Shown piece after piece: positions 2,241 to 46,990 of a stretch of 64,000 nucleotides of DNA (its first letter is position 1; each line of letters starts with the position of its first letter). The notes beneath the pieces were generated by a model. It saw nothing but the letters and a program-made list of their open reading frames with translations. It was not told the origin of the DNA and made no database searches. The position numbers were made by a program, and so were the translations under genes. The stretch lies in NCBI RefSeq assembly GCF_056746865.1, contig NZ_CM163382.1; one strand, written 5' to 3'.

Positions 2241-3777
2241 AATAGTCATTAAACCGAATACCTATTTTGATTCTGTCTCGCTGATGTCTATCTCCACGCG
2301 TGCAAATAAACTCGACGGCGTCGAGCAGGCATTTGTGGCGATGGCGACCGAAATGAACAAAGGCGTGCTGAAGAATTTAGGACTGCTGACGCCGGAGCTG
2401 GAGCAGGCGAAAAACGGCGACCTGATGATTGTCATCAATGGTAAATCGGGTGTGGACAACGAGCAGTTGCTGGCGGAGATTGAAGAACTGTTCAACACCA
2501 AAGCGCAAAGTGGCTCGCACGAGGCGCGTTACGCCACTATTGCCAGCGCCAAAAAGCATATCCCGGAAAGTAACCTGGCGGTGATTTCGGTCAACGGTCT
2601 GTTTGCCGCTCGCGAAGCGCGTCAGGCGCTGCAAAACGATCTTAACGTGATGCTGTTTTCCGATAACGTCTCAGTTGAAGATGAACTGGCGCTCAAACAG
2701 TTGGCCCACGAAAAAGGGCTGCTGATGATGGGGCCAGACTGCGGTACGGCGATTATCAACGGCGCGGCGCTCTGCTTTGGTAACGCCGTGCGTCGCGGCA
2801 ACATCGGCATTGTTGGCGCATCCGGCACCGGTAGCCAGGAACTGAGCGTCCGTATCCATGAATTTGGCGGCGGCGTTTCGCAACTGATCGGCACCGGCGG
2901 GCGCGACCTGAGCGAGAAAATCGGCGGCCTGATGATGCTCGACGCCATCGGGATGCTGGAAAACGATCCGCAAACTGAAATCATTGTGCTTATCTCCAAA
3001 CCGCCTGCGCCTGCGGTGGCCCGCAAAGTGCTGGAACGCGCGCGCGCCTGCCGCAAGCCAGTGGTGGTTTGCTTCCTCGGTCGTGGCGAAACGCCGGTGG
3101 ATGAGCAGGGGCTACAGTTTGCCCGCGGCAGTAAAGAGGCGGCGCTGAAAGCGGTAATGCTCTCCGGCGTGAAACAGGAACATCTCGACCTGCATACCCT
3201 GAACCAGCCATTGATTGCTGACGTGCGCGCTCGCCTGCAACCGCAACAGAAATACATTCGTGGCCTGTTCTGCGGCGGCACGCTGTGCGACGAAACGATG
3301 TTCGCGGTGATGGAAAAACACGGCGATGTCTACAGCAACATTCAGCCCGATCCGGAATTCCGCCTGCAAGATATCAGCCGCAGCATCAAACACACCTTCC
3401 TCGACTTTGGTGATGACGACTTCACCAACGGCAAGCCGCATCCAATGATTGACCCGACCAACCGCATCAGTCGCTTGATCGAAGAAGCGCGCGATCCAGA
3501 AGTGGCGGTGATCGTGATGGATTTTGTGCTCGGATTTGGATCGCATGAAGATCCGGTCGGCTCCACCATCGAGGCGATCAAAGAAGCGAAAGCGATCGCC
3601 GCTGCCGAAGGACGTGAGTTGATCATTCTCGCCTATGTGCTGGGTACCGATCTTGATACGCCATCATTAGAACAACAAAGCCAGATGCTGCTTGATGCCG
3701 GAGTGATTCTGGCCAGCAGTAGCACCAATACCGGATTGCTGGCGCGTGAATTTATCTGCAAAGGGGAGGAAGCCTGA
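2230..3777 (+). CDS. yahF: FdrA-like acyl-CoA synthetase/CoA-binding family protein
   Basis: ORF track 515 aa; glycine-rich CoA-ligase-like motifs (GIVGASGTGSQE, GTGGRD). Confidence 0.85.
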   Translation: MSVKIVIKPNTYFDSVSLMSISTRANKLDGVEQAFVAMATEMNKGVLKNLGLLTPELEQAKNGDLMIVINGKSGVDNEQLLAEIEELFNTKAQSGSHEARYATIASAKKHIPESNLAVISVNGLFAAREARQALQNDLNVMLFSDNVSVEDELALKQLAHEKGLLMMGPDCGTAIINGAALCFGNAVRRGNIGIVGASGTGSQELSVRIHEFGGGVSQLIGTGGRDLSEKIGGLMMLDAIGMLENDPQTEIIVLISKPPAPAVARKVLERARACRKPVVVCFLGRGETPVDEQGLQFARGSKEAALKAVMLSGVKQEHLDLHTLNQPLIADVRARLQPQQKYIRGLFCGGTLCDETMFAVMEKHGDVYSNIQPDPEFRLQDISRSIKHTFLDFGDDDFTNGKPHPMIDPTNRISRLIEEARDPEVAVIVMDFVLGFGSHEDPVGSTIEAIKEAKAIAAAEGRELIILAYVLGTDLDTPSLEQQSQMLLDAGVILASSSTNTGLLAREFICKGEEA

Positions 3778-5195
3778 TGAGCCAGTCACTGTTTAGCCAA
3801 CCGTTGAACGTTATTAACGTCGGTATCGCCATGTTTAGCGATGATCTGAAAAAACAGCATGTAGAAGTGACCCAACTCGACTGGACGCCGCCGGGGCAGG
3901 GCAATATGCAGGTGGTGCAGGCGCTGGATAACATTGCCGATTCGCCGCTGGCAGACAAAATCGCCGCCGCTAACCAGCAGGCGCTGGAGCGCATTATCCA
4001 GTCGCATCCGGTGCTGATTGGTTTTGATCAGGCGATTAACGTGGTGCCGGGCATGACGCCGAAAACCATTCTTCACGCCGGGCCGCCGATCACCTGGGAA
4101 AAAATGTGCGGCGCGATGAAAGGCGCGGTCACCGGGGCGCTGGTGTTCGAAGGGCTGGCGAAAGATCTCGACGAGGCGGCTGAACTGGCGGCCTCCGGGG
4201 AGATCTCCTTCTCGCCGTGCCACGAACATGACTGCGTGGGATCGATGGCGGGTGTTACCTCGGCCTCGATGTTTATGCACATCGTAAAAAACAAAACCTA
4301 CGGCAACATCGCTTACACCAATATGAGCGAGCAGATGGCGAAGATTTTGCGTATGGGCGCTAACGACCAGAGCGTGATTGACCGCCTCAACTGGATGCGC
4401 GATGTGCAGGGGCCAATGCTGCGCGACGCGATGAAAATTATCGGCGAGATCGATCTGCGCTTAATGCTGGCGCAAGCGCTGCATATGGGCGATGAATGCC
4501 ATAACCGCAATAACGCCGGGACGACGCTGCTGATTCAGGCGCTGACGCCGGGGATTATTCAGGCGGGTTATTCCGTCGAGCAACAGCGCGAAGTGTTTGA
4601 GTTTGTCGCCAGCAGCGACTACTTCTCCGGCCCGACGTGGATGGCGATGTGTAAAGCGGCGATGGATGCGGCGCACGGCATCGAATACAGCACCGTGGTG
4701 ACCACCATGGCGCGTAACGGCGTCGAGTTCGGCCTGCGGGTCAGCGGCCTGCCGGGGCAATGGTTTACCGGTCCGGCGCAGCAGGTCATCGGCCCGATGT
4801 TTGCCGGTTATAAGCCGGAAGATTCGGGGCTGGATATCGGCGACAGCGCCATCACCGAAACCTACGGCATTGGCGGATTTGCTATGGCGACCGCGCCCGC
4901 GATCGTCGCGCTGGTGGGTGGCACGGTGGAAGAGGCTATCGATTTCTCCCGTCAGATGCGTGAAATCACCCTTGGCGAAAACCCCAACGTCACCATTCCG
5001 CTGCTCGGTTTTATGGGCGTGCCATCGGCAATCGACATCACCCGCGTGGGTAGCAGTGGCATTCTGCCGGTGATCAACACCGCCATCGCTCATAAAGATG
5101 CGGGCATCGGCATGATTGGCGCGGGCATTGTGCATCCACCATTCGCCTGCTTCGAGAAAGCCATTCTTGGCTGGTGCGAACGTTACGGCGTTTGA
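3777..5195 (+). CDS. yahG: DUF1116-family protein (YlbE-like)
   Basis: ORF track 472 aa; start overlaps yahF stop (ATGA). Confidence 0.8.
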   Translation: MSQSLFSQPLNVINVGIAMFSDDLKKQHVEVTQLDWTPPGQGNMQVVQALDNIADSPLADKIAAANQQALERIIQSHPVLIGFDQAINVVPGMTPKTILHAGPPITWEKMCGAMKGAVTGALVFEGLAKDLDEAAELAASGEISFSPCHEHDCVGSMAGVTSASMFMHIVKNKTYGNIAYTNMSEQMAKILRMGANDQSVIDRLNWMRDVQGPMLRDAMKIIGEIDLRLMLAQALHMGDECHNRNNAGTTLLIQALTPGIIQAGYSVEQQREVFEFVASSDYFSGPTWMAMCKAAMDAAHGIEYSTVVTTMARNGVEFGLRVSGLPGQWFTGPAQQVIGPMFAGYKPEDSGLDIGDSAITETYGIGGFAMATAPAIVALVGGTVEEAIDFSRQMREITLGENPNVTIPLLGFMGVPSAIDITRVGSSGILPVINTAIAHKDAGIGMIGAGIVHPPFACFEKAILGWCERYGV

Positions 5196-5217
5196 CTCTC
5201 CAACCGCACCTTACGAT

Positions 5218-5242
5218 CCCTTCTCCCTTCAGGGGAGAGGGG
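5218..5242 (+). other. stem-loop (10-bp stem with one G-T pair, 5-nt loop) in yahG-yahI spacer
   Basis: cccttctccc ttcag gggagagggg; no downstream T-tract. Confidence 0.4.
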
Positions 5243-5290
5243 CAACCTCACTCTCATAACCCCATCACCCTCTGTAGCGGACATAACAAC

Positions 5291-6241
5291 ATGAAAGAAC
5301 TTGTGGTCGTTGCCATTGGTGGCAACAGCATTATCAAAGATAACGCCAGCCAGTCGATTGAGCATCAGGCGGAGGCGGTGAAAGCCGTCGCTGATACGGT
5401 GCTGGAAATGCTGGCTTCCGATTACGACATTGTGCTGACCCACGGCAACGGGCCGCAGGTCGGGCTGGATTTACGCCGCGCGGAGATAGCCCACGAGCGC
5501 GAAGGGCTGCCCTTAACGCCGCTGGCGAACTGTGTGGCGGATACGCAAGGCGGCATTGGCTATCTGATCCAACAGGCGCTGAATAACCGACTGGCGCGTC
5601 ACGGTGAGAAAAAAGCCGTCACCGTGGTGACTCAGGTGGAAGTGGATAAAAACGATCCGGGGTTTGCCCATCCCACCAAGCCCATCGGCGCATTCTTTAG
5701 TGAAAGCCAGCGTGACGAATTACAAAAGGCAAACCCTGACTGGCGTTTTGTTGAAGATGCCGGACGGGGCTATCGCCGCGTGGTCGCCTCGCCGGAACCG
5801 AAACGTATTGTCGAAGCACCGGCCATTAAGGCGCTGATCCAACAAGGCTTTGTGGTGATTGGCGCGGGCGGCGGCGGAATCCCGGTGGTGTGCAGTGAAG
5901 CGGGGGATTACCAAAGCGTGGACGCGGTTATCGACAAAGATCTCTCTACCGCGCTATTGGCCCGTGAAATTCACGCTGACATTCTGGTGATCACCACTGG
6001 CGTCGAAAAAGTGTGTATTCACTTTGGCAAACCGCAGCAGCAGGCGCTGGATCGCGTAGATATTGCCACCATGAACCGCTATATGCAGGAAGGGCATTTT
6101 CCGCCTGGCAGCATGTTGCCAAAAATCATCGCCAGCCTGACGTTCCTGGAACAGGGCGGCAAAGAAGTGATTATCACCACGCCGGAATGCCTGCCTGCGG
6201 CGCTGCGCGGTGAAACGGGCACCCATATTATTAAAACGTAA
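5291..6241 (+). CDS. yahI: carbamate kinase-like protein
   Basis: ORF track frame 5174..6241; start moved to ATG 5291 (MKELVVVAIGGNS...) giving 316 aa typical of carbamate kinases. Confidence 0.85.
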   Translation: MKELVVVAIGGNSIIKDNASQSIEHQAEAVKAVADTVLEMLASDYDIVLTHGNGPQVGLDLRRAEIAHEREGLPLTPLANCVADTQGGIGYLIQQALNNRLARHGEKKAVTVVTQVEVDKNDPGFAHPTKPIGAFFSESQRDELQKANPDWRFVEDAGRGYRRVVASPEPKRIVEAPAIKALIQQGFVVIGAGGGGIPVVCSEAGDYQSVDAVIDKDLSTALLAREIHADILVITTGVEKVCIHFGKPQQQALDRVDIATMNRYMQEGHFPPGSMLPKIIASLTFLEQGGKEVIITTPECLPAALRGETGTHIIKT

Positions 6242-26252: not shown

Positions 26253-26278
26253 GGTATTGTCGGATGCGTCGTGTGGCG

Positions 26279-26994
26279 CATCCGACACCGTGCGCCGATG
26301 CCTGATGCGACGCTGACGCGTCTTATCATGCCTACAGGCCTGAACCGTAGGTCGGATAAGGCGCTCGCGCCGCATCCGACACCGTGCGCCGATGCCTGAT
26401 GCGACGCTGGCGCGTCTTATCATGCCTACAGGTCTGAACCGTAGGTCGGATAAGGCGCTCGCGCCGCATCCGACACCGTGCGCAGATGCCTGATACGACG
26501 CTGGCGCGTCTTATCATGCCTACAGGCCTGAACCGTAGGTCGGATAAGGCGCTCGCGCCGCATCCGACACCGTGCGCCGATGCCTGATGCGACGCTGGTG
26601 CGTCTTATCATGCCTACAGGCCTGAACCGTAGGTCGGATAAGGCGCTCGCGCCGCATCCGACACCGTGCGCAGATGCCTGATGCGACGCTGGTGCGTCTT
26701 ATCATGCCTACAGGCCTGAACCGTAGGTCGGATAAGGCGCTCGCGCCGCATCCGACACCGTGCGCAGATGCCTGATACGACGCTGGCGCGTCTTATCATG
26801 CCTACAGGCCTGAACCGTAGGTCGGATAAGGCGCTCGCGCCGCATCCGACACCGTGCGCAGATGCCTGATGCGACGCTGGTGCGTCTTATCATGCCTACA
26901 GGTCTGAACCGTAGGTCGGATAAGGCGCTCGCGTCGCATCCGACACCCCGCGCCGATGCCTGATGCGACGCTGACGCGTCTTATCAGGCCTACC
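26279..26994. repeat. tandem array of about 7.5 units of a 94-bp REP-pair repeat (BIME-type)
   Basis: catccgacacc recurs every 94 bp from 26279 to 26937; five identical-frame 61-aa spurious ORFs at 94-bp spacing in ORF track. Confidence 0.9.
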
Positions 26995-29724: not shown

Positions 29725-29803
29725 GCCGGATGCGGCGTGAACGCCTTATCCGGCCTACGTAGAGCACTGAACTCGTAGGCCTGATAAGCGTAGCGCATCA
29801 GGC
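29725..29803. repeat. REP palindrome pair between codA and cynR
   Basis: gccggatgcggcgtgaacgccttatccggcctacg ... cgtaggcctgataagcgtagcgcatcaggc. Confidence 0.7.
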
Positions 29804-33174: not shown

Positions 33175-33261
33175 TGCGACGCTTGTTTCGCCAGATAATG
33201 GAAGAGTGAATTATTGTCGGATGTGCCCAATGGCGCATCCGACATTTATTTCAGTGCTAAT

Positions 33262-46924: not shown

Positions 46925-46990
<66 letters not shown>

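Follow-up and report, generated by a model that had tools for sequence, protein, structure and literature searches.

BoxC is an enterobacterial repeat said to have been described by Bergler et al. in 1992, and Hoyne et al. reportedly gave it the name PIT element in 2000. The repeat is interspersed, is built of three blocks, and is also known under the aliases PIT and TMECO triplex motif (Holder et al. 2015, PMC4666352); E. coli K-12 carries 22–23 copies of it (PMC2267715, PMC4666352). Its position is unrelated to gene class or to distance from genes (PMC4666352), and the tests of Hoyne and Maher (2002), as far as they are recounted in PMC4666352, found neither promoter nor terminator activity. 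According to Holder et al., loci of the motif are much more variable among E. coli strains than control intergenic regions, and the family is described as including degenerate copies as well as stem-loops that persist where an inverted pair has been partly deleted (PMC4666352). Two other kinds of element invite comparison: REP/BIME elements, which are GC-rich palindromes in intercistronic gaps (Stern et al. 1984), and intrinsic terminators, which are stable GC-rich stem-loops downstream of a stop codon and require a U-tract after the stem. The hairpin that we analyzed, between yahG and yahI of an E. coli strain, most likely represents what is left of the core of a BoxC repeat; since it lacks the third block, a defining feature, we class it as a decayed relic of the family and not as a full member. 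In the portion of the supplement of Holder et al. (PMC4666352) that was searched, no entry names either of the two genes or yahH.

The window (the whole 64-kb stretch of DNA that was analyzed) comes from E. coli but not from K-12; its segment 4900–5600 matches strain 118UI and others at 100% identity and most genomes compared at 95–99%. On the plus strand, yahG (3777..5195) encodes a DUF1116/AllG-family protein (Pfam PF06545, 6.9e-89) and ends with a TGA stop at 5193–5195, as given by the ORF list and by the RefSeq annotation of identical genomes. It is followed on the same strand by yahI (5291..6241), which the ORF list, annotation, and Pfam assign to the amino-acid kinase family (carbamate kinase family). 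The spacer between them spans 5196–5290 and is 95 nt long, 1 nt shorter than the first-pass annotation had stated, since the ATG of yahI begins at 5291. Its left part (5196..5217, plus strand) is C-rich (10 C, 2 G) and varies more than any other stretch when strains that carry the hairpin allele are compared. Its right part (5243..5290, plus strand) is the yahI leader, which lies outside the repeat and has one variable column among the hairpin alleles.

Between these two parts, 22 nt past the yahG stop and 48 nt ahead of the yahI start, the sequence reads CCCTTCTCCC-TTCAG-GGGAGAGGGG (5218–5242). The 5′ arm CCCTTCTCCC (5218..5227, plus strand) matches a pyrimidine block of BoxC in HMM and covariance-model alignments, and the 3′ arm GGGAGAGGGG (5233..5242, plus strand) matches the purine block; the loop TTCAG (5228..5232, plus strand) is TTCTG or TTTTG in most other strains with this allele. 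The first-pass annotation had described a 10-bp stem with one G-U pair, a 5-nt loop, and no U-run, and had proposed a folding prediction as a check. Sequence and prediction agree with that description: the stem has 10 pairs including one G·U (T5221·G5239), and RNAfold predicts the isolated hairpin at about −19.5 kcal/mol, drawing it preferentially with 11 pairs and a 3-nt loop by way of an added U5228·G5232 pair. The fold of the spacer (a 96-nt stretch) has a predicted energy of −23.1 kcal/mol (z = −2.13), which 5 of 200 shuffles equaled. Hairpins of the same class (stem of at least 10 bp, at most one G·U, at least 6 G-C pairs, loop of 3–8 nt) occur at six distinct places in the 64-kb window, amounting to 13 stem/loop registers against a mean of ∼0.9 in dinucleotide shuffles. 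The purine arm GGGAGAGGGG has a second, weaker pairing partner in CCTCACTCTC (5246–5255), across a 3-nt loop and at −10.4 kcal/mol; this alternative at 5233–5255 gives a pyrimidine–purine–pyrimidine layout with two mutually exclusive hairpins, of which the upstream one is far more stable.

As a stable GC-rich stem-loop downstream of a stop codon, the hairpin resembles an intrinsic terminator, but the sequence 3′ of the stem, CAACCTCACTCTCATAACC, holds no T-run, none follows the stem on either strand, and a terminator scan of the spacer returned no site on either strand. We therefore rejected this assignment, and the doubt already voiced in the first-pass annotation holds, all the more as the BoxC family had no terminator activity in the published tests recounted above. 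A known RNA family was rejected likewise: an Rfam covariance-model search of 4900–5600 gave two chance-level matches (E ≥ 4.6), neither overlapping the hairpin. On the plus strand of 4700–5800 no promoter-like site was found, and we infer from this that the gap would be transcribed within the yahEFG–yahIJ message.

The same lack of an intrinsic terminator, together with the composition of the spacer (38 C and 15 G among its 95 nt; 10 C:2 G to the left of the stem and 20 C:4 G to its right), could suggest a rut-like Rho-loading region that attenuates yahG→yahI expression when translation is uncoupled, with the hairpin looped out between C-rich tracts. We consider this very improbable. The argument is one of composition only, and the C-richness can be traced to BoxC-derived sequence and the conserved yahI leader; with the yahI start no more than 48 nt away, much of the region should be covered by ribosomes; and REP alleles at the same site differ strongly in composition.

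To place the hairpin, we aligned the 22 published K-12 copies of BoxC (Cozzuto et al., PMC2267715, supplement 69) and built a covariance model and an HMM from the alignment. In the nhmmer search of the 64-kb window, the hairpin was the sole significant match, with 18.2 bits (E = 1.2e-4) on the minus strand and 13.6 bits (E = 0.003) on the plus strand, and everything else scored at most 3 bits. With cmsearch it scored 16.4 bits on the minus strand and 14.9 bits on the plus strand, and all other matches in the window reached 9 bits at most; the profile search thus gave no second BoxC match in the window. The classical BoxC upstream of fabI in K-12, used as a positive control, scored 72 bits with the covariance model. 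The best match to the profile extends over 5209..5241 on the minus strand and covers model positions 18–50 of 51, that is, the core palindrome and the tail. The core palindrome of BoxC (CCCTCTCCCC, 3–4 nt, GGGG(C/A)GAGGGG; blocks 2 and 1) is present in the hairpin, and the location between the yahG stop at 5195 and the yahI start at 5291 is intergenic, as in BoxC. The conserved 3′ tail of BoxC has the form (G)ACCGnnCG; on the minus strand, 5209–5217 is a weak match to it (GGGATCGTAAGG vs. the consensus GGGGACCGACCG), which gains only about 1.5–4.6 bits over the plus-strand alignment.

The remainder of the repeat is missing. Model positions 1–17 (TTTTCCCCTCACCCTAA) were unaligned on both strands with cmsearch and nhmmer, and the third block CCCCTCACCC with its TAA or CCG loop is absent, the two flanks of the hairpin reading CCTTACGAT and CAACCTCACTCTC. 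What the hairpin shares with BoxC/PIT/TMECO is the core palindrome in the form CCCTCTCCCC-N3-5-GGG(G)AGAGGGG, perhaps part of the 3′ tail, the intergenic position, and a hypervariable locus. It differs in having no third block, and thus no potential for the three-block intrastrand triplex, and in scoring 16–18 bits vs. 30–72 bits for complete copies. Because the third block is absent, an assay for an intrastrand triplex formed in vitro by the hairpin segment is expected to be negative. A second, very degenerate BoxC at 5257–5272 (TAACCCCATCACCCT, block-3-like) was considered and rejected; it scored only 2.3 bits, and the same flank is kept in genera that also hold full BoxC copies.

Polypurine/polypyrimidine palindromes could come to look alike by convergence, and the hairpin might accordingly be a locus-specific stem-loop, G/C-rich and unrelated to BoxC. 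Several features would suit such an origin: the likeness extends no further than the palindrome and a few positions of the tail, there is no third block, the scores are only 14–18 bits, and the 64-kb window holds no second copy. We nevertheless give little credence to it. The hairpin stands out in the window at E = 1.2e-4 against noise of at most 3 bits. When 5193–5252 was compared by blastn with 5,426 E. coli genomes, the sole other locus found was the BoxC between ycjD and fabI, a classical copy, at E = 5; the same search found no near-identical copies of the spacer, with a median of one place per genome. Finally, other genera have complete BoxC copies at the orthologous position, and the flanks there can be aligned. 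Descent from BoxC remains an argument from similarity and position, drawing on 33 of the 51 model positions at moderate scores.

Evidence from the other genera came from a YahG scan with one genome per species, which delivered 80 orthologous loci (498 kb; numbered with the prefix L). The BoxC model had 81 matches in these 80 loci, and all 81 lay in the spacer that immediately precedes the yahI ortholog. In Kluyvera (L017, L019, and L042) and Klebsiella spallanzanii (L020), where yahG and yahI are adjacent, the gap holds either one complete BoxC or an inverted pair, directly after yahG and at 25–61 bits. A MAFFT alignment placed the window hairpin on the Kluyvera BoxC core with collinear flanks, and the left flank CAACCGCACC aligned with CAGCGCAC, which precedes the Kluyvera copy. 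The orientation of the hairpin is read differently by the two approaches, the profiles favoring the minus strand and the synteny alignment the plus strand. In Enterobacter, Leclercia, Buttiauxella, Serratia, Silvania, and others, BoxC lies between a membrane-protein gene and the kinase gene, and yet other genera have other palindromes in the spacer. At about 25 orthologous loci, among them those of Trabulsiella, ten Citrobacter species, several Enterobacter, Leclercia, and Lelliottia, the spacer measures 0–26 nt and the genes overlap or the spacer is essentially structureless, although some of the zero-length Enterobacter spacers arise because the upstream ORF runs through a BoxC copy, so that the palindrome is present.

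Several features of these loci were noted in passing. The membrane-protein gene, situated between yahG and the carbamate kinase gene in many Enterobacterales, encodes a predicted multipass protein of 517 aa (for example, L043 3922–5475 in Enterobacter vonholyi, with equivalents in L026–L076), and this protein had no match to a Pfam or NCBIfam family. Its ORF continues across the BoxC copy in several Enterobacter species and thereby gains a C-terminal extension. In Serratia oryzae (L062 5616–6096), five direct BoxC copies with a period of 88 nt, followed by one inverted copy, lie upstream of the yahI ortholog.

Within E. coli, the hairpin allele was found by blastn of 5193–5252 in 651 of the 5,426 complete genomes (12%), at 88–100% identity. 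The other sequenced alleles have 1, 2, 4, or 5 BIME units (REP pairs) at the same place, and most of the other E. coli genomes examined carry REP arrays where the hairpin would be; in K-12, the yahG–yahI gap is 421 bp long and contains four REP pairs (BIME units). BIME arrays are also present at the locus in E. albertii, E. whittamii, Escherichia sp. E1V33, and Pseudocitrobacter, and all sampled non-coli Escherichia carry BIME and none BoxC. The right-hand leader CATAACCCCATCACCCTCTGTAGCGGACATAACAAC is common to all alleles, and the hairpin segment is an alternative to the REP array. In E. whittamii, the right flank of the hairpin, CATAACCTTACTCT, is retained beside the BIME array, which indicates that the array occupies the hairpin's own slot; these 14 nt are gone from K-12-type alleles. 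The hairpin and REP/BIME thus resemble each other as GC-rich palindromes of an intercistronic gap, and REP/BIME is the alternative allele at exactly the hairpin's site in E. coli, E. albertii, and E. whittamii, but the hairpin has no sequence similarity to the REP consensus and is a single copy rather than an array. Its assignment as a REP element was rejected, as it matches neither the consensus GCCGGATGCGGCGTGAACGCCTTATCCGGCCTAC nor the Z-type partner of that consensus; a pattern search allowing up to three mismatches gave only 29725 and 46943 in the window. Those two places hold canonical REP sequences (29725–29758 and 46943–46976).

The annotated gene yahH is probably an artifact of the REP array and not a real gene. 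Its ORF lies wholly within the four-unit BIME array of K-12 (L001 9770–10090, corresponding to NC_000913.3 339769–340089), and similar ORFs are annotated as "hypothetical protein" or "protein YahH" in other REP alleles.

We aligned seven representative hairpin alleles and found five variable columns in the left flank, a variable loop, and one variable column in 5243–5290. Three positions of the stem vary among strains. One change (C→T) turns a pair into G·U, another (G→A) turns the G·U into A-U, and the third (C→A) breaks the terminal pair. Retention of pairing in two of the three changes is compatible with selection on the structure, for which it is weak evidence at best, and the variability of the stem (3 of 20 positions) can be set against that of the left flank (5 of 22).

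Taken with the distribution among genera, these alleles suggest a history in which the single real intergenic gap of the yahEFG–yahIJ cluster would have been colonized repeatedly by different repeat families. A BoxC copy or an inverted pair may once have been present in the gap, as it still is in Kluyvera and Klebsiella, with the third block lost afterward. This loss could have taken either of two routes. A single, yahI-proximal BoxC copy may have decayed; alternatively, an inverted pair may have collapsed, since two inverted BoxC copies carry two direct copies of the core, which is itself palindromic, and a deletion between these would leave one hairpin and no third block. Residual stem-loops of just this sort are among those that Holder et al. 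describe (PMC4666352). Because all sampled non-coli Escherichia carry BIME and not BoxC, a BoxC relic can have persisted in Escherichia only if the polymorphism is old or if recombination has spread the BIME allele. On balance, we think it likely that the hairpin is a decayed BoxC relic without its third block in a recurrently colonized gap, and probably one that is tolerated rather than kept as a selected signal. Its toleration without selection is argued by the REP arrays that substitute for it in most other E. coli examined, by the genera that have no spacer, and by a stem that is not notably conserved.

The role of REP elements as barriers to 3′ exonucleases is well known, and Newbury et al. 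are said to have reported in 1987 that REP stabilizes upstream mRNA. REP-containing structured mRNAs need RNase R or PNPase for their decay (PMC12320835). By analogy, a passive barrier to 3′→5′ exonucleases is also plausible for the hairpin, which the first-pass annotation had considered as a possible RNA processing or stability element. As RNA, a hairpin of −19.5 kcal/mol would not stop RNA polymerase and would at most slow such exonucleases passively, protecting the upstream yahEFG segment as REP hairpins do. It would neither terminate transcription nor cover a ribosome-binding site, because it lacks a U-tract and lies 22 nt past the yahG stop and 48 nt before yahI, and its stem of 10–11 bp is too short for RNase III.

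A stronger version of this idea holds that the structure is a selected intercistronic stabilizer or decay barrier that uncouples yahEFG from yahIJ mRNA levels, with BoxC, BIME, and other palindromes being interchangeable. Nearly every ortholog spacer longer than ∼50 nt does contain a stable palindrome, be it BoxC, REP-like, or of another kind, and these spacers fold at −18 to −96 kcal/mol, pairing survives in two of the three stem changes noted above, and both the dependence of REP mRNA decay on RNase R or PNPase and the stabilization by REP of upstream mRNA provide a precedent. We still judge a selected stabilizer to be unlikely. The loci with spacers of 0–26 nt (about 25, counting the zero-length Enterobacter cases that still carry the BoxC palindrome) do without such an element, the stem is conserved no better than the left flank, and one of its changes breaks a pair. 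Moreover, the published tests of PIT/BoxC, in the part recounted by Holder et al., showed no measurable effect on transcription, and repeats would naturally build up in the sole free spacer of a tight cluster. In a further form of the proposal, the stem-loop at the junction is itself what is selected, unrelated repeat families (BoxC, BIME, and REP-like) are recruited to supply it interchangeably, and the hairpin is a minimal functional remnant, retained once the triplex block of BoxC had gone. This we regard as quite unlikely; if true, selfish repeat families would here have replaced one another functionally in nature.

A tolerated BoxC relic is mainly of value for annotation, where the proper label would be a degenerate BoxC/PIT/TMECO repeat and not a regulatory RNA or a terminator. 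The hairpin's identity as a degenerate BoxC at a repeat hot spot is most likely what the first-pass annotation overlooked. The replacement of the hairpin by REP arrays and the existence of spacerless genera argue against a dedicated, selected RNA signal, and most likely the hairpin is a degenerate member of a known repeat family with no dedicated RNA signal evident. In addition, the locus shows cleanly, in a natural setting, how a single intergenic position is held by different repeat families across strains and genera, in agreement with the instability that has been reported for BoxC loci. As its alleles are distinguished by the spacer alone, it could serve to test the effect of a palindrome on operon expression.

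The conserved cis-element of the spacer may be 5243–5290 and not the hairpin. The right flank from 5255 onward is common to the REP alleles and recognizable in Kluyvera, Citrobacter, and Raoultella by MAFFT. The yahI leader (…CATCACCCTCTGTAGCGGACATAACAAC) has its one variable column among seven diverged hairpin alleles, and Kluyvera, Citrobacter amalonaticus, and Raoultella carry a motif related to it, CATCACCTTCTGCACTGGAA, ahead of the kinase start.

Three further observations concern the surrounding sequence. Elsewhere in the window, two near-identical palindromes of 11–13 bp (TGTCGGATGCG…CGCATCCGACA) occur at 26258–26287 and 33215–33244, each directly after one of two gene ends that resemble each other (…ATGGAAGAGTAA and …ATGGAAGAGTGA). 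Plasmid-labeled records (for example, NZ_CP132021.1, a 40.5-kb record) account for about 120 matches to the yahG/yahI region, which may be true plasmid copies or misassigned chromosome fragments. The YahG protein itself is 86–99% identical in amino acid sequence from Escherichia to Providencia, Proteus, and an Aeromonas contig (L008–L087), a conservation far above that typical between these genera.
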